The translations under genes and the position numbers were made by a program. This document shows positions 1,118 to 62,715 of a stretch of 64,000 nt of DNA, piece by piece. The notes under the pieces are model-generated. The model did no database searches and had not been told where the DNA came from. It was given only the letters and a program-made list of their open reading frames with translations. This DNA comes from Mobula hypostoma (lineage: Eukaryota): positions 121,212,001 to 121,276,000 of the forward strand of contig NC_086097.1 in the NCBI RefSeq assembly GCF_963921235.1, in the 5' to 3' direction. Every line of letters starts with the position of its first letter. Position 1 is the first letter of the stretch.

Positions 1118-1997
1118 GAGAATCTGGTGCAGGGGCCAGGGCTTCAGGCTCTGGGATCACTGGGATCTCTTCTGGGGGAGGTATGACCTGTACAAAAGGG
1201 ATGGGGTGCACCTGAACCTAAGGGGGACCAATATTCTTGTGAGCAGGTTTGTTAGAGCTGTTGGGGAGGGTTTAAAGTAATTTGGTAGGGGGGTGGGAAC
1301 TGGAATGATAGGACTCAGGATAGACGGATGGTAAATAAGCAAAGATAACATGCAGTCAGACTGTCAGGAAGGGCAGGCAGATGATAGGACAAAATTGCAG
1401 CCAGCAGGGTGAGTATTAGTGCATTAGGGATTCAAAATCAAAAAGGGTAGCAAATACAGTATTCAAAATGATATCTCTCTGTACACGGAGTATAAGAAAT
1501 AAGGTGGCTGATCTTGTTGCACTTTCACAGATTGTCGGGGATGATGTGGCCATCACTGAATTGAAGCTGAAGGATGGTTATAGTTGAGAGCCGAATGTCC
1601 AAGGTTACACATTGTATTGGAGGGATGGGAAGTTAGGCAGAGGGGTTGGCAGGGCTCTGCTGGCCAAGAATTACATCAAATCATCAGAAAGATGTGCCAG
1701 GATCAGAAGATGTTGAATCCTTGTGGGTTGAGTTAAGAAACTGCAAGGGAAAAAAGACCCTTGCAGTTGGGATGTGGAATACAGATTACAATGGGAAACA
1801 GTAGAGGCGTGTCTAAAGGGCAATATTATGATAGTCATGGGAGATTCTAACAGGTAGATTCTAGCAGGTAGATCGTGAAAATAGATCTTAAGAGGGTGAA
1901 TTTGTTGAATGCCTATGAGATCACTTTTTAGAACAGTGTTCAGCCTACTAGGGGATCAGCTATACTGGATTGGGTGTTAGGCAATGAACCAGAGAAG
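1118..1997 (+). mobile_element. decayed CR1: end of ORF1 esterase and APE endonuclease region
   Basis: GGATCACTGGGATCTCTTCTGG...GGGGTGCACCTGAAC (HWDLFW..DGVHLN) matches the esterase end at ~19950. Degenerate GDSN and LDWVLGNEP endonuclease motifs follow. Confidence 0.8.
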
Positions 1998-2781
1998 GTC
2001 ATACGCATTGGTGGAAGAAATCAATGGGCAGACTATTACTTAGATGGGGAGAGAATTCAAAATGCAGAGATGCAAAGGGACTTGGGAGTCCTTGTGCAGG
2101 ATATCCAAAAGGTTGACTTTCAGGTTGAGTCGGTGGTGAAGAAGGCAAATGCAATGTTGGCATTCATTTCTAGAGGTATAGAATATAAGAGCAGGGATGT
2201 GATGTTGAGGCTCTGTAAGGCACTCGTGAGACTACAATTGGAGTATTGTGTCCAGTTTGGGGCTCCTAATTTTAGAAAAGATATGCTAACATTGGAGAGG
2301 GTTCAGAAAAGATTCACGAGAATGATTCCAGGAATGAAAAGGTTACCATATGAGGAATGTCTGGCAGCTCTTGGGCTGTATTCCCTGGAATTCAGGAGAA
2401 TGACGGGGGAGCTCATAGAAACATTCTGAATGTTAAAAGGCCTGAACAGATTAGATATGGCAAAGTTATTTCCCATGGTAGTGGAGTCTAGGACAAGAGG
2501 GCACGACTTCAGGATTGAAGGACATCCATCTAAAACAGAGATGCAGAGAAATTACTTTAGTCAGAGCATGGTAAATCTGTGGAATTTGTTTCCATGAGCG
2601 GCTGTGGAGGCCAAGTCATTGGGTACACTTAAGGCAGAGATAGATAAGTTCTTGATTAGCCAGGGCATCAAAGGGTATGGGGAGAAGGCAGGGGAGTGAA
2701 GATGACTGGAAGAATTGGATCAGCCTATGATTGAATGGCGGAGCAGACTCAATGGGCCAAATGGCCTACTTCTGCTCCTGT
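1998..2781 (+). mobile_element. 5'-truncated CR1 3' fragment inserted in an older CR1
   Basis: Abrupt switch from endonuclease (NEPE) to post-RT sequence (NQWADYYLDGE). Ends in the CR1 3' UTR motif AATGGCCTACTTCTGCTCCT. Confidence 0.85.
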
Positions 2782-4950
2782 AGTTGGTTAGGGTAGACTA
2801 GGAACACAGGCTATATGGTTGGACGGCTGGGGAACAGTGGAAGACTTTCAAAGAAATTTTTCACGGTGCTCAACAAAAGTATATTACAGTTAAAAGCAAG
2901 GACAGTAAGGGTAGGCAGAGCCAGCCATGGATAACTAAGGAAATAAAGGAAGGCATCAAACTAGAAGCTTGTGTGCACAAAATCGCCAAGAGTAGTGGGA
3001 AACTGGAAGATTGAGAAAACTTTAAAAAGCAACGAAGAACCACAAAGCGATCAATTAAGAAAGGGAAGATACATTATGAAAATAAACTAGAACAAAATAT
3101 GAAAAAGGATAGTAAAAGTTATAATAATTTTATAAAGTAGAAAAGGGTGGCCAAAGTGAACGTAGGTCCCTTGGAAGACAACAATGGGGAATTGATATTG
3201 GGTAATGAGGAAAAGGCCGAGGCTTTGAATGATTATTCTGTGTTGGTTTTCACAGTGGAGGACACGTCTAACATGCCGAAGAGAGATGGTATGGATGCAA
3301 TGGGAGGTGAGGAACTCAATACAATAGCTATCACTAAAGAGGTAGTGCTGAGCAAACTTGTGGGCCTAAAGGTGGACAATTCCCCTGGTCCTGATGGAAT
3401 GCACCCCAGGGCACTGAAAGAAATAGCAGAAGTTATAGTTAAGGCTTTGGTGATAATTTATCAAAATCCGCTGGACTCTGGACAGGTCTCGGCAGATTGG
3501 AATACGGTGAATGTCACACCACCGTTCGAAAAAAGGATGTAAGCGAAAGGCAGGTAACTATAGACCCGTTAGATTAACATCTGTAGTTTGGAAAATGTTT
3601 GAAGATATCATTAAAGAGAAAAAATGAAGCATTCTGTAAAGAAATGGGTCCATCAGGCAGATGCAGCATGGATTCAGCAAAAACAGGTCCTGTTTGACAA
3701 ACTTACTGGAGTTCTTTGAGGATATAACAAGCACAGTGGATAGAGGAGAACAGGTGGACATTATTTACTTGGATTTCCAGAAGGCGTTCGATTAGGTGCC
3801 ACATAAAAGGCTTATCAATAAGATAAGGATGCGTAGAGTTGGGGGTAATGTATTAACGTAGCTAGAGAATTGGTTAACCAATAGAAAGCAGAAAGTTGGG
3901 ATACATGGGTGTTTCTCTGGTTGGCAATCAGTGGTGAGTGGTGTGCCACAGTGGTCAGTGCTGAGCTCACAACTGTTCACAATCTACATCAATGATCTGG
4001 AAGAGGAAACTGAGTGTAGTATATTTAAATTTGCTGATGACACTAAATTGAGTGGAAAAACAAATTGTGCAGAGGATAAGGAGAGTCCGCAGAGAGATAT
4101 AGATAGGGTAAGTGAGTGGGCAAGGGTCTGACGGTTGGAGTACGATGTTGGTAAATACGAGGTCATCCACTTTGAAAGGAAAAATGGAAATTAGATTTTT
4201 ATTTGATTAGTAAAAGATTGCAGCATGCTGCTGTGCAGAAGGACTTAGGAGTATTTGTTGCGTGAATTGCAATAGGTTGGTTTGCAGGAGCAGCAGGCTA
4301 TCAAGAAGGCAAATGGAATGTAGGGCTTCATTGCTAGAGGGATTGAATTTAAAAACAGGGAGGTTATGCTGCAACTGTATAGCGTACCGGCGAGGCCGCA
4401 TCTGGAGTACTGCATGCAGTTCTGGTCTCCTTACTTGAGGAAGGATATACTGGCTTTGGAGGCAGTGCAGAGGTGGTTCACCAGGTTGATTCCAAAGATA
4501 AGGGGGTTAGACTACGAGGAGAGATTGAGTCACCTGGGACTGTATTCACTGGAACTCAGAAGGATGAGAGGAGATCTTACGGAAACATATAAAGTTATGA
4601 AAGGGATGGGTAAAATAGAGGCAGGAAAGTTGTTTCCACTGATAGGTGACACTAGAACTAGGGGACATAGCCTCAAGATTCAGGGGAATTAGATTTAGAA
4701 TGGAATAAGGAGGAACTTATTTTCTCAGAGAATGGTGAATCTGTGGAATTCACTGCCCAATGAAGGAGTGTAGGCAACCTCAGTAAATATATTTAAGACA
4801 AGGTTGGATAGATTTTTGCATAGTAGGCGAATTAAGGGTTATGGGGAAAAGGCAGATAGGTGGAGATGAGTCCATGGTCAGATCAGCCATGATCTTATTG
4901 AATGGCGGAGAAGGCTCCACAGACCAAATGGCCTACTTCTGCTCTTATGC
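2782..4950 (+). mobile_element. decayed CR1 ORF2 (RT to 3' UTR)
   Basis: Fragmented ORFs 3147-3542, 3931-4131 (SGVPQ, FADDTK) and 4366-4692; 3' UTR near 4900-4950. Confidence 0.9.
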
Positions 4951-16728: not shown

Positions 16729-17786
16729 GTACAGCCTGTGGCCATTGAGTGTATGTTCATAGTCTTCTGCTGATGTAGCCCATCTATTTCAAGGTTTGAT
16801 GTGTTATGTGTTCAGAGATGCTCTTCTCATAGCACTGTTGTAATGCATAATTTTTTTCAGTTAGTGTCGTTTTCCTATCAACTTGAAACATTTTATCAAT
16901 TCTCCTCTGACCTCTCATTAACAAGACCTTTTCACCCACAGAGCTACCACTCACTCAATGATTTTTTTTGTTTTTTACACCATTCTCTGTAAATTCTACA
17001 AACTGTTGTGCATGAGAATCCTAGGAGATCAGTAGTTAATGAGATACTTAGACTACCCTATCTGGCACCAACAATCAATCCCAATAAAAGTCACTTAAAT
17101 CACATTTCTTCCCTGTTTGGACATTTGGTCTGAACAACAACTGAACCTCTCAACCATAACTGTATGCTTTTATGCATTGAATTGCTGCCACATGACTTGG
17201 CAAATGAAATATTTGCACAGGTGTATCTAGTAAAGTAGCCACTGACTGTTTTAGAGCAATTTTTGAGGTTAGCTTTTGTAGCAATTAACTTAATCAATTT
17301 CAGCCACTAGCCTTCAAATTTGAATACGTATTGAAGATTAAATCTAAAGTGCAACTCTGAACAACGAGTAGACAATGCTGGTTTAAATTCATTATTTGTG
17401 TGTATTTGGGTGTCTGTAGTATGGGTGTGAATGAGGGAGGTGTGAAAGGGGTATGTATTTCAAAGTCAGCAATTGAATGTTCTCTGCAGGCCAGGCAGCA
17501 TCTATGGAAAAGTACAGTTGATGTTTTGGGCCTCCAGCATTTTGTGTGTGTTGCTTGTATTTCAAAGGAAGCTTTGTAAATATGGATTTGTTGGAATTAT
17601 TCTGAATCTTTCTTTGATCTTTAGCACATTAAAGTGTTATGTAGGGCTGGGCCAAGCAGAACTTTCCACTGAAAGGGTCTCAATATGATGCCTGCTGTAT
17701 GTTCTTTTGTTGAATAAAGAGGCTGCTTCACGTCCACCAGCACCTCTCTATGGTGACTTCATTCACACAACAGCAACTGTATATGC

Positions 17787-17915
17787 CTGACGAAGGGTCT
17801 CGGCCTGAAACGTCGACTGCGCCTCTTCCTATAGATGCTGCCTGGCCTGCTGCGTTCACCAGCAACTTTGATGTGTGTTGCTTGAATTTCCAGCATCTGC
17901 AGAATTCCTGTTGTT
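17787..17915 (+). mobile_element. 129-bp Penelope terminal-repeat fragment with truncated hammerhead core
   Basis: Flanked by a 9-bp direct repeat TGTATATGC (17778-17786, 17916-17924). Sequence matches the terminal repeat of the Penelope at 31862. Confidence 0.85.
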
Positions 17916-18045
17916 TGTATATGCATTCTGTTAGATTTCCTTCTTTCCACACTTGCATCAATGCAATATATTTTAATTTCTTCTTTTATTAACTGTTTTT
18001 CCTTTATTCACTTTTCTTCTGTCATTGTCTATCTATCTTGTAAGA

Positions 18046-30237: not shown

Positions 30238-31780
30238 CAGGTTTCCCCCGCCATCCGAAGGTACAGCGTTCCTATGAAACGGTTCGTAAGCCGGAATGTC
30301 GTAAAGCGAAGAAGCAATTACCATTTATTTATATGGGAAATTTTTGTAGTGTTCGCAGACCCAAAAATAACCTACCAAATCATGCCAAATAACACATAAA
30401 ACCTAAAATAACAGTAACATATAGTAAAAGCAGGAATGATATGATAAATACACAGCTTATATAAAGTAGAAATACTTTTCGACGGTCATTGCCTGAACTG
30501 TTCTCCGTAGGGAAAATCTCACGCAAGCGCCATCGGCAAAAGCACGGCGCAAGCGCTCTCCAGTAACCTTTAAGCTATGAAGCTGCCAAATCATACCAAA
30601 TAACACAGCCGATATAAAGTAGAAATAATGCATGTACAGTGTAGTATCACTTACCGGAATTGGGACTGTGCTGAGCACACTAATGGTGTGTTAGACTGAG
30701 TCATCGGAGTTTGGGTGGTGCAGTGGCCCCCACCCTCCGGGCGGCGAACTGATACTGATCCGTGAAGCATGCAGCGGTAGCCGGGAGGCACACAGCACAT
30801 CTTTAAGAAAAAAGCCGAAATAAACATGCTAATTAATTAGGTGCCGCCCGGCATGTATTTGTCGGCCCAGATCAGTGCCGATTGCCAATTGCATCGCCTC
30901 TGATCTGGTTCGACAATTACGTGTCGGGCAGCACCTAATTAATTAGCATATTTATTTCAGCTTTTTTCTTAAAGATGTGCTGTGTGTCTCCCGGCTACTG
31001 CTGCATTCTCCACGAATTGGTATCTGTCCGCGGCCTGGGAGTTGGGGTGGTAGGACACTGGGGTGTCATCTCATCGTCTGTTCCCATTAGGGTAGGCAGC
31101 TCATCTTCTCCTATGACTGCCCGCCTCGATGTCGAAGTTGAGGTTCGTCGTCTGCTGTGGCTGATGTGGAAGGTTTTCTTGACTGCTGAGCCTCTCACAT
31201 TTTTCTATCATACAGTTCTTTGTAGACGCTCAAACCATCCTGCAAATATCCCTAAACCGACGTACCCTTTCAAAATTAAAGTCGTACTTCATCATTACTC
31301 GTTCGGTTTTGATTGTTATTCTTTCCTCTTCCAATTACATCAGCTCTTCATCTATCAGTTCTTGGTCATGGGATGCCAAAACCTCTTCAACATCATGTTC
31401 ATCAGCTTCCACAAGCCAAACTCACTTAGTCCTTACTTCGTTCACTACGATTAAAATGCTTAATTATGTCTAGTTTTATGCTAAGTGTAACACCCTTACG
31501 AGCTCTTTCAGGCTTTTCCGATACCATAGAACTCATCTTGCAAACGGCTGCTCACAGGCACGTGTTTAAGCAATGCCGGCGAGAATGCTGTTCCGAATCC
31601 GGGGGAGAGCGGCTGCTAGGGGCACGCGCTGCCTTTTATCGCGCGCTGATTTTTTTTCACGCGCTGCCTTTCTTCGTAACAGTGAAAACACCTTCTGTTA
31701 GTGAAAACAGGGTACTAATGTAGGTCTTTCGTAACAGTGAGGTTTCGTAAAGCCAACGTTCAAAAAGCGAGGGACGCCTA
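30238..31780 (-). mobile_element. Tigger/pogo non-autonomous DNA transposon
   Basis: TA|CAGGTTTCCCCCG...GAGGGACGCCTA|TA. Internally deleted transposase remnant; homologous to 38822-40433. Confidence 0.9.
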
Positions 31781-31921
31781 TACACTACATCTACTGCCCT
31801 ACTTTTATCAATATGTTTAGTCACATCCTCAAAAAATTCAATCAGGCTCGTAAGGCATGAAACACACTATTAAAATTGCTGGTGAATGCAGCAGGCCAGG
31901 CAGCATCTACAGGGAGAAGTA

Positions 31922-31959
31922 CAGTCGACGTTTCGGGCTGTGACCCTTCATCAGGACTA
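31922..31959 (-). ncRNA. minimal type-I hammerhead ribozyme
   Basis: Minus strand UAGUC-CUGAUGA-A-GGGU(CACA)GCCC-GAAAC-GUC-GACUG: complete core, helix I UAGUC/GACUG, 4-bp helix II, palindromic ACGU helix III. Confidence 0.85.
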
Positions 31960-33582
31960 ACTGAAAGAAGAGATAGTAAGAGATTTGAAAGTGGGAGGGG
32001 GAGGGGGAGATCCAAAATGATAGGAGAAGACAGGAGGGGGAGGGATGGAGCTAAGAGCTGGACAGGTGATTGGCAAAAGGGATATGAGAGGATCATGGGA
32101 CAGGAGGCCTAGGGAGAAAGAAAAGGGGAAGGGGGAATCCTAGAGGATGGGCAAGGGGTATAGTGAGAGGGACAGAGGGAGAAAAAAAAAATAAATACAT
32201 AAATAATTAACAGATGGGGTACCAAGGAGAGGTGGGGCATTAACAGAAGTCAGAGAAGTCAATGTTCATGCCATCAGGTTGGAGGCTACCCAGGCGGAAT
32301 ATAAGGTGTTGTTCCTCCAGCCTGAGTGTGGCTTCATCGTTACAGTAGAGGAGGCCATAGATAGACATATCAGAATCGGAATGGGACGTGGAATTAAAAT
32401 GTGTGGCCACTGTGAGATCCTGCTTTCTCTGGTGGACAGAGAATAAGTGTTCAGTGAAACGGTCTCCCAGCCTGCATGGGGTCTCGCCAATATATAGAAG
32501 GCCACATCGGGAGCACCGGACGCAGTATATAACTCCAGCCAACTCACAGGTGAAGTGTTGCCTCACCTCTAAGGACGGTCTAGGGCCGTGAATAGTGGTG
32601 AGGGAGGAAGCGTAAGGGCATGTGTAGCACTTGTTCCACTTGCAAGGATAAGTGCCGGGAAGGAGATCGGTGGGAAGGGATGGGGGGAGGGGGAATGAAT
32701 GGACAAGGGAGCGATCCCTGCAGAAAGCGGGGGGTGGGGGGGGAGGGAAAGATGTGCTTAGTTGTGGGATCCCGTTGGAAGTGGCAGAAGTTACGGAGTA
32801 TTATATGTTGGACCCGGAGGCTGGTGGGGTGGTAGGTGAGGACAAGGGGAACCCTATTCCTAGTGGAGTGGCGGGAGAATGGGGTGAGAGCAGATGTGTA
32901 TGAAATGGGAGAGATGCATTTGAGAGCAGAGTTGATGGTGGAGGAAGGGAAGCCCCTTTCTTTAAAAAAGGAGGTCACCTCCTTCGTCCTGGAACGAAAA
33001 GCTTCATCCTGAAAGCAGATGCGGCGGAGATGGAGGAATTGCGAGAAGGGGATGGCATTTTTGCAAGAGACAGGGTGAGAAGAGGAATAGTCCAGATAGC
33101 TGTGAGAGTCCGTAGGCTTATAGTAGACATCAGTAGATAAGCTGTCTCCAGAGATAGAGACAGAAAGATCAAGAAAGGGGAGGGAGGTGTCGGAAATGGA
33201 CCAGGTAAACTTGAGGGCAGGGTGAAAGTTGGAGGCAAAGTTAATGAGGTCAACGAGCTCAGCATGCATGCAGGAAGCAGCGCCAATGCAGTCATCGATG
33301 TAGCGAAGGAAAAGTGGGGGACAGATACCAGTATAGGCTTGGAACATGGATTGCTTCATATAGCCAAACAAAAAGGCAGGCATAGCTGAGACCCATACAG
33401 GTTTCCGTGGCTACACCTTTAGTTTGGAGGAAGTGGGAGGAGCCAAAGAAGAAATTATTAGGAGTAAAGACTAATTCCGCTAGATGGAGCAGAGTGGTGG
33501 TAGAAGGGAACTGGTTAGGTCTGGAATCCAAAAATAAGCGGAGAGCTTTGAGACCTTCCTGCTGGGGGATGGAAGTATATAG

Positions 33583-34448
33583 TGTGACGAGAATACACAT
33601 AAAATTAAGATGTTTGCTGGCCTGGGTTAGCATCAGTGGCATCAGTAAGTGGTCTGCCACCTGTCCTCAGGGGAAGGAGAGATAAGGAACAATGGAGCAC
33701 CGTCTGGAGATGTGTAATGAAGGGACGGGAGAGAGAGCTGCCTGGAGCGGCTCCCCCTTTGAACCCTGAACTGTTTGAAGTGATGGACAGGCGATACCCC
33801 AGCAGGGGGATAAAAAGGGACAGATTCGCTAAGGCAAGACACACACGACACCCGAGGTAACGAGACCCTGGAAGCGGTGCGCCTCTCACGAGTCGGTGGG
33901 AAGTACCGCACCTTAAATGCACAGGGTGGAAAGGTACGATCAGCGGGAACCCAGTGTGTGTCCACCCTCGCTTGGGTGCCGGGTTCACTGCAGAGGATCG
34001 ACCGCATCTGGAGGAGGGGTCACAGTCGGTGACCTCAGGTGACATCACAAAGGACCTGCCCGAAAGCTGCTTATGAGCAATATCGCCGGTCTGTGAGTAG
34101 AAGCCGTTTCTGAATGATCAGTCGTTCCCGTTCTCTCTCTCTCCCTCCCCCCACGTTGTCCATTGCCATGGCAACGATTACTGTGAACTGAACTACTAAA
34201 TTGGACTGAACTTTGTGTCACTTTGAAATTGGTCATTTATCCCTAGACAACGATAGAGCTTGATTGACGCTGTTATCTTAATTCTGTGCACATGTGGGTT
34301 TATCATTGCTGAACTGTTGCATTTATTATCCTTTCGATTACTGTGTTGCTTGTTTCTTTAATAAAACTTTCTTAGTTCTAGTAATCCAGACTCCAACTGA
34401 GTGATCCATTTCTACTGGTTTGGCAACCCAGTTACGGGATACGTAACA
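33583..34448 (+). repeat. 866-bp solo LTR
   Basis: TGTGACG...CGTAACA termini, 4-bp TSD ATAG (33579-33582, 34449-34452), GATAAAAA TATA-like box at ~33809, AATAAA at ~34360, CpG-rich. Confidence 0.9.
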
Positions 34449-34989
34449 ATAGGGACTGGACATCCATGGTGAAAATAAAGCGGTGGGGGCCAGGGAACTT
34501 AAAATCATTGAAAAAATTCAGAGCGTGAGAAATGTAAGGCATGACCTGCCTTTCACAAAGCCATGCTGACTATTCCTAATCATATTATGCTTCTCCAAAT
34601 GTTCATAAATCCTGCCTCTCAGGATCTTCTCCATAAACTTACCAACCACTGAAGTAAGACTCACTGGTCTATAATTTTCTGGGCTATCTCTACTCTCTTT
34701 CTTGAATAATGGAACAACTCCTGCAGCCCTCCAATCCTCTGGAAACACTCCAGTCCCCATTGATGATACAAAGATCATTGCCAGAGGCTCAGTAATCTCC
34801 TCCCTCGCCTCCCACACTGGCCTGGGGTACCTCTCGTCCAGTGCCAGTGACTTATCCAATTAGATGCTTTCCAAAACCTCCAACACATCCTCTTTCCTAA
34901 TACAATTGCAAATTCAGCTTGAATTAGTGGTATATGTGATCCAATATGATGGATCATAAAATATAGAACATTACTGTACAGAGTAACGT

Positions 34990-35150
34990 ACACAAAATGC
35001 TGGAGGAACCCAGCAGGTCAGGCAGCATCAATGGAGAGGACACACTGACTGTTTATTCCCCTCCAGAGGTGTTGCATGACCTGCTGAGTTCCTCCAGTAT
35101 TTGTGTGCATTCCTCCAGATTTCCTGCATCTGCAGAATCTATTTTGTTTA
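34990..35150. repeat. Penelope terminal-repeat-derived inverted repeat
   Basis: ACACAAAATGCTGGAGGAACCCAGCAGGTCAGGCAGCA pairs with TGTTGCATGACCTGCTGAGTTCCTCCAGTATTTGTGT. Confidence 0.75.
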
Positions 35151-37641: not shown

Positions 37642-38430
37642 TACAAAATGCTGGACAAGCTCGGCAGGTCAGGCGGCATCTATGAAAAAGAGTAAACAGT
37701 CAATGTTTGGGCAGAGACCCTTCTTCAGGACTTGAAAGGAAAGATGGGAGAGGGGAAAGAGGCTAGCCGGAAGGAGATGGTGAAGCCAGTTGGGTGGGAA
37801 AGGTCAAGGGTAGGAGAAGAAAGAATCAGATAGAAGAGGAGAATGGGCAATAGGAGAAAGGGAAGGAGGAGGGGACCCAGGGGAAGTAATTGGCAGGTGA
37901 GAAGAAATGAAATGTCAGAGTGGAGAGTAGAGTAAGGCAGGGGGAAGATTGTTCACCAGAAGAAGAAATAGATATTCATGCCATCAGGTTAGAGGGTACA
38001 CAGGTGTTGCTCCTCCACCCTAAGGGTGGCCTCATCTTGGCACAAGAGGAGGCCACAGATCAACACGTCGGAATGAGAATAGGAATTAAAATCTTTAGCC
38101 ACTAGGAAGTCCCACTTGTGGTGGATGGTGTGGAAGTGCTCAATGAAGCAGTCCCCCAATTTAGGACGGTTCTCACCATGGTAAAGGAGGCCGCATTGGG
38201 AGCACTGGACACAATAGACGACCCCAGCACATATGGAGCTGGTGTTGGCTCACCTGGAAGGACTGCTTGGAGCCCTGAATGGAGTTGAAAGAGGAGGTGT
38301 ATGGGCAGGTGTAGCACCTAGGCCGATTGCCAGGAGGGGGATTAGTGAGGAGGAATGAATGGACAAGGGAATCGCAGAGAGGGCAATCTATGTGGAAAGT
38401 GGGTGGAGGGGTGGGGGATGGTAAAGGTAT
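37642..38430 (-). mobile_element. decayed Penelope 3' part (GIY-YIG + terminal repeat)
   Basis: Colinear with 31870-32760; degenerate hammerhead at ~37697-37731. Confidence 0.8.
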
Positions 38431-62189: not shown

Positions 62190-62715
62190 AGAGCATGCCT
62201 TGTGAGGACAGATTGCCTTGACCAAGCTAGAAGCCAAGGAGGATTAAGGGCAACTTGATGGATGTGTACAAGAAGATAGAGGCATAGAGCGATTGGATAG
62301 TCAGAGACTTTTTCCTAGAGCAGAAAGGGCTAATACCAAGGGACATAATTTTAAGGTGACTGGAGGAAAATAAAGGGAGATGTCAGAGAGTGGATGGAGT
62401 GCACGGAGTCTAGGGGTGGTGGTAGACACAAAGACATTAGGAACACTCTTACTAGCTCTTCTTTCAGTTAGTCCTGATGAAGGGACTCGGCCCGAAACGT
62501 CGACTGTACCTCTTCCTATAGATGCTGCCTGGCCTGCTGCCTTCACCAGCAACTTTTATGTGTGTTGAGGGACATTTAAGAAATGCTTCGATAGGCACAT
62601 CGATGATAGAAAAATGGAGGGCTATGTAGGAGGGAATGGTTGGATTGAATTTCGAATTCGTTGAAAGATCAGCACAATATCATGAGCCAAAGGTCCTGTA
62701 TTATGTTCTATGTAC
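62190..62715 (+). mobile_element. decayed CR1 3' end containing a Penelope terminal-repeat fragment (~62445-62567)
   Basis: RRIKGNLMDVYK remnant; ACATTAGGAACA...AGGGACATTTAAG junctions. Confidence 0.7.
62469..62506 (+). ncRNA. minimal type-I hammerhead ribozyme
   Basis: UAGUC-CUGAUGA-A-GGG(ACUCGG)CCC-GAAAC-GUC-GACUG; predicted cleavage after C62501. Confidence 0.82.

Follow-up and report, generated by a model that had tools for sequence, protein, structure and literature searches.

A sequence-complete minimal type-I hammerhead motif in the 3' terminal region of a 5'-truncated Penelope-like element

Introduction

The canonical type-I hammerhead ribozyme is represented by the Rfam family Hammerhead_1, with the Sm-alpha repeat of Schistosoma as an example. 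Minimal hammerhead ribozymes (min-HHRs) were defined in the flanking repeats of metazoan Penelope-like elements (PLEs), including the fish elements Xena, Poseidon, and Neptune (Cervera & De la Pena 2014, PMC4209133). The features described there are a helix I of 4–5 bp, an unpaired nucleotide between A9 and G10.1, a G10.1–C11.1 pair, a palindrome at 15.2–16.2, and a location in the pLTR. According to the same source, the in vitro activity of metazoan min-HHRs is very low; cutting was weak and confined to dimers and trimers, as with dimeric constructs of the S. mansoni min-HHR. That hammerheads are always present in pLTRs is stated in a 2019 review (PMC6765202), which cites Lunse et al. for dimer cleavage. 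In a 2024 study of the Anolis carolinensis Poseidon element PAc (PMC11167929), the hammerhead is reported to cut only with the protein of the element; cutting was abolished in C3/G8 mutants, with C3/G8 rescue as in true hammerheads, insertion in vitro was unaffected by the hammerhead mutations, and the RNA-seq data reported there had no reads ending at the cut site. The same study attributes the 'tail' of PLEs to internal initiation of reverse transcription. Animal retrozymes are derived from PLE pLTRs according to a 2026 preprint (10.64898/2026.07.22.740005), and 126,247 hammerhead motifs are given for the axolotl in PMC7229834.

Here we describe a hammerhead motif on the minus strand of a 64-kb stretch of DNA, which is called the window below and was analysed over its whole length, together with the PLE family that carries the motif throughout the genome. 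The motif matches the PLE min-HHRs described since 2014; its kind is therefore already known, and this family is a further example. A full-text literature search and two of the three supplementary files of PMC4209133 held no match to the exact motif sequence, and the supplementary alignments of that paper may include a close relative of this PLE family.

Results

Sequence and layout of the motif

An earlier note, made from the letters of the window, had described a complete hammerhead core and three helices at 31922–31959. Direct reading of the minus strand from 31959 to 31922 gave the same letters, UAGUC CUGAUGA A GGGU CACA GCCC GAAA CGU C GACUG, with the following layout.

31922..31959, minus strand: minimal type-I hammerhead motif, 38 nt (direct reading and pattern match)
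31959-31955 / 31926-31922, minus strand: helix I, 5 bp, UAGUC/GACUG (4 Watson-Crick pairs and 1 U.G)
31954-31948, minus strand: core CUGAUGA (C3 U4 G5 A6 N7 G8 A9; direct reading)
31947, minus strand: unpaired A ahead of helix II (direct reading)
31946-31943 / 31938-31935, minus strand: helix II, 4 bp, GGGU/GCCC with loop CACA (3 G-C pairs and 1 U.G)
31934-31931, minus strand: GAAA, containing G12 A13 A14 (direct reading)
31930-31928, minus strand: CGU (direct reading)
31927, minus strand: C17, with the predicted cut between 31927 and 31926 (hammerhead rule)

The cleavage triplet GUC at 31929–31927 (N16.2 U16.1 H17) leads directly into GACUG, the helix I 3' strand, and application of the hammerhead rule puts the predicted cut at the same position as the earlier note had. 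The helix III hairpin is replaced by the loop-less, self-complementary ACGU at 31931–31928. The note's assignment to the PLE type of minimal hammerhead is borne out by the further features published in PMC4209133, as described there, all of which were found here; among them are the G10.1–C11.1 pair and the unpaired nucleotide between A9 and G10.1. The stretch 31922–31959 is confirmed as a sequence-complete minimal type-I hammerhead motif, in which every core nucleotide is present.

The model search that had been named as a check came back empty, the Rfam hammerhead models giving 0 matches at the gathering score in the 64 kb and 0 at E values up to 10 in 31700–32200. This null result does not weigh against the motif, because the published min-HHRs are without the helix III hairpin. 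In thermodynamic folding, the lowest-energy structure of the 38-mer is not the hammerhead, part of the core being paired with ACGU; the predicted fold of the 130–150-nt context is likewise without a hammerhead, and the two-strand fold is a long duplex (−25.2 kcal/mol). The folding results are taken as uninformative because the motif is so small.

The core pattern matched twice in the 64-kb window, with 0.00 matches expected from 100 shuffles. In the whole genome (3.48 Gb), the pattern CTGAYGAN{10,16}GAAACGTC, which is slightly wider than that used for the window in that N7 is C or U and 10–16 nt are allowed for helix II, gave 86,682 matches, as compared with 107 for the reversed control pattern. 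A chance look-alike having no common origin with hammerheads would agree with the empty Rfam search, but it is excluded by these counts in the window and the genome and by the full set of published min-HHR side features, and its probability is negligible.

The host element copy in the window

Positions in the PLE are given with respect to a longer genomic copy, locus L073, which served purely as a coordinate reference. The features of the copy that carries the motif are as follows.

31861..34533, minus strand: 5'-truncated, decayed PLE copy (approximately 1697–3514 of the 3514-nt unit from locus L073)
31850..31860, no strand: target-site duplication TCATGCCTTAC, 3' side, 11 bp (direct reading)
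34534..34544, no strand: target-site duplication TCATGCCTTAC, 5' side, 11 bp (direct reading)
32240..32800, minus strand: GIY-YIG reading-frame remnant (Pfam PF01541, E 1.3e-4, 22.7 bits against a cut-off of 22.6)
32580..33410, minus strand: reverse-transcriptase frame remnant, containing LRYIDDC and not in the GIY-YIG frame
31861..32186, minus strand: 3'-terminal non-coding region, the portion repeated upstream (pLTR) in longer copies

In BLAST, the L073 unit and the window copy were 88% identical over 1746 columns and 94% identical over 87, and ~870 nt of unmatched DNA lies inside the window copy at 33583–34448. The host DNA of the insertion is a LINE-like reverse-transcriptase frame interrupted by the PLE copy. 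Based on the truncated match to the unit and the 11-bp duplication, the window copy is therefore a 5'-truncated, decayed insertion into this LINE-like frame. The placement of the motif sense to, and downstream of, a reading frame for reverse transcriptase and GIY-YIG in the earlier note is supported by the frames, the Pfam GIY-YIG match, and the L073 alignment, which all agree; the GIY-YIG frame ends 281 nt upstream of the hammerhead, and the hammerhead is 65 nt from the 3' end of the copy. A Pfam search of the reverse-transcriptase remnant (32580–33410) gave no match, and its relatives throughout the genome are 81–87% identical to it. In the window copy as well as in L072, L073, and L074, the GIY-YIG frame is shifted by one from the reverse-transcriptase frame, with an overlap of ~220–500 nt, and the change of frame seems to occur close to a proline-rich and C-rich run.

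The location of the motif, which had been given as the terminal repeat of a Penelope element, was retained in part: the motif does lie in the 3' terminal region of a PLE, but this region is single here and is repeated only in longer copies. In the comparison with the L073 unit, the window copy was found to be without the upstream repeat, the 3' terminal region alone being present. The window copy is most likely an inert fossil, because its frames are broken and no partner motif is present on the sense strand within the 64 kb.

Other copies of the motif in the window

Core-complete copies at 17787–17814 and 62469–62506, both on the plus strand, were absent from the earlier note, and a decayed hammerhead belongs to a second PLE family.

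62469..62506, plus strand: second core-complete motif (3 differences, all in the top and the loop of helix II)
17787..17917, plus strand: 131-nt insertion of the same PLE family (unit 3421–3514, then unit 1–38 as the PLE 'tail')
37697..37733, minus strand: decayed hammerhead in a second PLE family, reading CTGAAGA..CCCAAACATT (the GIY-YIG frame of that family, 37989–38249, is ~250 nt upstream)

The motif at 62469–62506 is located inside a 119-nt 3' fragment of the same PLE family (62448–62566). The 131-nt insertion starts exactly at the hammerhead C3 and is flanked by a 7–9-bp duplication, (TG)TATATGC (within 17778–17926); its hammerhead (17787–17814) has a complete core and is without the 5' strand of helix I. 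This insertion illustrates how short mobilised copies can get. The coding region of the second PLE family is 73% identical to that of the main family. Apart from these copies, the minus strand has a repeat at 34990–35150 with an inverted repeat of 46 nt (83% complementary). The PLE tail box (GATGCTGCCTGACCTGCTG...CCAGCATTTTGTG) is present in it along with a remnant AAAC-GTC-GACTG, and an intact hammerhead is absent; this repeat may represent a non-autonomous relative.

Conservation and variation of the motif

In an alignment of 13 copies from ~5 families, 13 core columns were invariant. The proposed pairing register left 80% of the cells paired, as compared with 16–38% when the partners were slid by 1–3 columns, and 78.5% of the helix I cells were paired. 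In the ACGU palindrome, the A–U pair was kept in 13/13 copies and the C–G pair in 7/13, the remainder being CpG-type changes. Between families, the 38-nt block was 76–92% identical, and its 60-nt flanks 43–75%. Many of the contigs in four public runs, which represent four organisms, align with the window solely from 31921–31923 to 31956–31958, and the frequent differences inside the motif, among those listed for the run contigs, are N7 and two bases of loop II; these are Logan contigs, as in all 24 runs found, for which the RNA label is a guess, and they cannot show RNA ends. In this genome, family-level variants are located at N7, in loop II, and at position 11.1 (C or U, either of which pairs with G10.1), and the commonest variant is a U at 11.1, resulting in a G.U pair. 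A small subfamily (e.g., L137, L141, and L152) reads GAAACTTT or a similar sequence where others have GAAACGTC, by which the ACGU palindrome is broken.

Covariation of helices I and II across genomic copies, on which the earlier note had relied as a further check, gave no signal. The number of pairs changed on both sides was 1 among very similar copies, a value equalled or exceeded in 261 of 500 shuffles, and 80.4% of the cells were paired as compared with 79.8% in the shuffles of the 13 similar copies. The lack of a signal reflects excessive similarity among the copies and not broken pairs. The overall pattern, which is one of conservation and not of covariation, is consistent with constraint on the ribozyme.

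The conserved block may alternatively be a selected RNA signal of the PLE, folded or bound by protein, that serves, for example, assembly with the reverse transcriptase, translation, or template switching, cutting in vitro being incidental or vestigial. However, the positions that are invariant across families are exactly those of the catalytic core, the family-level variants being at N7, in loop II, and at 11.1, and a mere binding site is not expected to reproduce the hammerhead core letter for letter. In addition, the Anolis motif cuts with the protein and shows a C3/G8 rescue like that of true hammerheads, as reported in PMC11167929. Observations that speak for such a signal are given below together with the DNA ends.

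Organisation of the family across the genome

Locus L073 consists of a 207-nt upstream partial terminal region followed by the 3514-nt unit, in which the hammerhead is located at 3422–3449; the motif region is thus present on both sides of the coding frames. A frame of 900 aa gave a match to RVT_1 (E 4.6e-5, 23.6 bits) that is under the Pfam cut-off of 29.6, and an overlapping frame of 310 aa, one frame off, gave a match to GIY-YIG (E 2e-4, 22.0 bits) that is slightly under the cut-off. A sequence search of solved structures with the 900-aa frame gave no relevant match. The 3' end at 31861 is common to all genomic copies, and the 5' ends are variable. The upstream partial unit, i.e., the pLTR arrangement, was found in 24 of 30 loci containing the coding-region start. 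A 30-nt word across the unit end and the unit start occurs 44,721 times, and the 'tail' beyond the unit end measured 30–52 nt in all 30 sampled loci. The start of the coding region has only 533 occurrences genome-wide; the family is therefore heavily 5'-truncated. Altogether, the family shows the habits of Penelope-like elements, namely, the pLTR, the tail, target duplications, and 5' truncation. As a side observation, contigs from 14 organisms (public runs X1–X24) contain 17–44% of the sampled words of window 31800–32600, and close relatives of this PLE family are therefore common to several organisms.

A different form of the family was found at locus L135 (G000:C2:157814500-157820499, minus strand), where four tandem monomers of 310 nt, each with a hammerhead, extend over ~2762–4026 in minus-strand numbering. 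The monomer is composed of unit 3413–3514 joined to unit 1–218, and the array as a whole lies inside one 13-bp target duplication, TTATCTAATTTTA. The C17 position reads U, C, U, and C along the array. L135 is a retrozyme-like multimer that was inserted in one piece. Further tandems with a period of ~262–435 nt were seen at L105, L114, L115/L116, G000:C2:122542727, and 122542989; they consist of the terminal region and the first 190–225 nt of the unit, and their deletion junctions differ, which suggests that the short-period tandems formed repeatedly and independently. Head-to-head inverted pairs of 3' fragments are also very common (e.g., L031, L034, L037, L055, and L057; G000:C1:109236/109307), and their junctions are often inside or right beside the hammerhead.

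From the short 3' fragments and the 310-nt tandem monomers that carry the same motif in this genome, and from the tracing of animal retrozymes to PLE pLTRs (10.64898/2026.07.22.740005, as stated in the preprint), the motif in the window could be regarded as part of a small non-autonomous retrozyme-like repeat and not of an autonomous PLE copy. This reading holds for L135 and is contradicted at the window copy, which is unbroken from the reverse-transcriptase and GIY-YIG frames through the motif to the 3' end (88% over 1746 columns) and is bounded by one 11-bp target duplication; we consider it highly improbable there.

DNA footprints of cutting

Copying of an RNA that had been cut at an upstream motif would be expected to yield copies with G1.1 (unit 3450) as their first base. 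In the 24 loci with an upstream partial unit, the starts of these partial units were scattered, none of them within 2 nt of the cut site, and only 1 of 28 short copies started at the cut site, being itself an inverted junction. Break-point patterns were counted 945 times at the cut site, as compared with 241 and 177 times at two nearby control positions, and real break points made up 24/29 of the inspected sample at the cut site and 15/20 and 19/20 at the controls. The excess at the cut site is thus ~2–4 fold when the narrower third pattern is allowed for, on the basis of two control positions only. Of the 24 cut-site break points that were real, 17 are head-to-head inverted junctions, several of which have GAC or GACT as microhomology between the helix I 3' strand and the reverse complement of the 5' strand. 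Plain ends preceded by unrelated DNA were found in 5/29 (cut site) and in 4/20 and 6/20 (controls), without a clear excess. The excess of break points is weak and confounded, and is not counted as evidence of cutting.

No U6 joined at the cut site was found in 30 loci sampled from 147 matches with TTT directly 5' of the cut-site sequence, 26 of which were variants of the GAAACTTT type; the others were two inverted junctions, one internal deletion, and one locus with unrelated upstream DNA. In the best 30 of 48 scored U6 loci, too, none had U6 joined at the cut site. Two of these 30, L189 (G000:C40:59907955-59911060) and L192 (G000:C9:145270851-145273953), are U6–PLE chimeras, in which U6 snRNA is in sense with PLE 3' parts and the junctions are ~38 nt past the cut site and within the part that encodes the endonuclease; they resemble chimeras produced by the PLE machinery through template switching or ligation. 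Each of the ~87,000 motif-bearing copies derives from an RNA that was uncut, or re-joined, at the cut site.

Several of these observations argue for the selected RNA signal considered above: the 5' ends are without a clear footprint of cut RNA, cut-site U6 was absent from the 30 U6 loci and the 30 T-tract loci, and many head-to-head junctions lie in or beside the motif. The same is true of the very low in vitro activity described for metazoan min-HHRs (PMC4209133), and of the Anolis Poseidon hammerhead mutants, for which unchanged in vitro insertion and no reads at the cut site are reported (PMC11167929). With the exact retention of the catalytic core on the other side, we regard this signal as a somewhat unlikely account of the block.

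Discussion

The account that we favour, and consider reasonably probable, is that the motif in the window was inherited by a dead, 5'-truncated PLE copy from a family whose active members are predicted to cut their RNA after C17 only when two copies are paired, probably with the help of the protein of the element. Because the palindromic ACGU is unable to fold back on itself, the strands of helix III would have to come from two RNAs, or from two motifs of the same tandem transcript, as has been proposed for other PLEs. Each RNA would then supply the core that cuts its partner, in accordance with the published work on PLEs. We propose that the requirement for a partner would keep an RNA with a single motif whole for reverse transcription. 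In the layout of the unit, the start of reverse transcription is ~100 nt downstream of the predicted cut, so that cutting at the 3' motif would deprive the RNA of this start. Tandem or multimeric transcripts, in our proposal, would be trimmed to unit length and perhaps circularised. Trimming and re-joining into circles are proposed in PMC4209133 and are described as shown for animal retrozymes in PMC7229834, and the L135 array fits this picture. Points against the cutting of RNA by the family are the empty Rfam search, the absence of compensatory covariation, a thermodynamic fold that is not the hammerhead, and the origin of all ~87,000 copies from RNA uncut or re-joined at the site.

A bolder reading is that the genome keeps a DNA record of PLE hammerheads acting in cells, consisting of the excess of break points at the cut site, the 310-nt arrays, and the ~87,000 motifs. 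The 310-nt arrays, enclosed by a single target duplication, have the appearance of small circular RNAs copied by a rolling-circle mechanism. We consider this reading doubtful; if it were true, the record would be that of a Penelope family turning into retrozymes, in which cutting and re-joining by the ribozyme is a working step. The window copy alone matters little, as it is a fossil, and PLE hammerheads have been catalogued since 2014 in fishes, amphibians, reptiles, and invertebrates. Because of its great size and uniformity, and because one genome holds both its coding copies and its short tandem derivatives, the family may be a convenient system for asking whether, and why, the weak, dimer-only ribozymes of PLEs cut in living cells.

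Comparison with known systems

Like the min-HHRs described in PMC4209133, the motif is of type I, has no helix III loop, is palindromic at 15.1–16.1, and has a short helix I; it also shares with them the unpaired nucleotide ahead of helix II and the G10.1–C11.1 pair. Furthermore, it is on the sense strand in a terminal region that is repeated in tandem copies, and it occurs in thousands of mostly solitary, truncated copies, as do the min-HHRs of that description. Helix II is 4 bp here and 6–8 bp in S. mansoni and D. virilis according to the same paper, and the copies are very uniform in this genome, whereas high variability is stressed there. The count is ~10 times the maximum given in PMC4209133 (~9,000, in Xenopus), although the descriptors differ. 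In view of the 126,247 motifs of the axolotl, the 86,682 found here are therefore no record.

Compared with the canonical type-I hammerhead, the catalytic core, the cleavage triplet, and the strand order are the same; the window motif differs in having no helix III hairpin, no recognisable contact between loops I and II, and no Rfam score. The combination of a hammerhead in the pLTR and a tail (30/30 loci here) is common to the present family and to PAc, as described in PMC11167929. In PAc, the reading frame opens inside the motif, with the cut 26 bp past the start codon (PMC11167929), whereas the first in-frame ATG of L073 is ~138 nt downstream of the cut site of the upstream motif. Protein-assisted cutting is a feature reported for PAc (PMC11167929), and is a prediction for the present family.

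The hammerheads of newt and axolotl satellites and of animal non-LTR retrozymes are described as weak monomers and active dimers in tandem monomers of ~170–400 nt (PMC7229834; 10.64898/2026.07.22.740005), and these sources show them keeping a short looped helix III and loop–loop contacts. The window copy, unlike the retrozymes, is not in tandem and is part of a coding element. The 310-nt array of L135 has the retrozyme form, with the same motif as the window copy.
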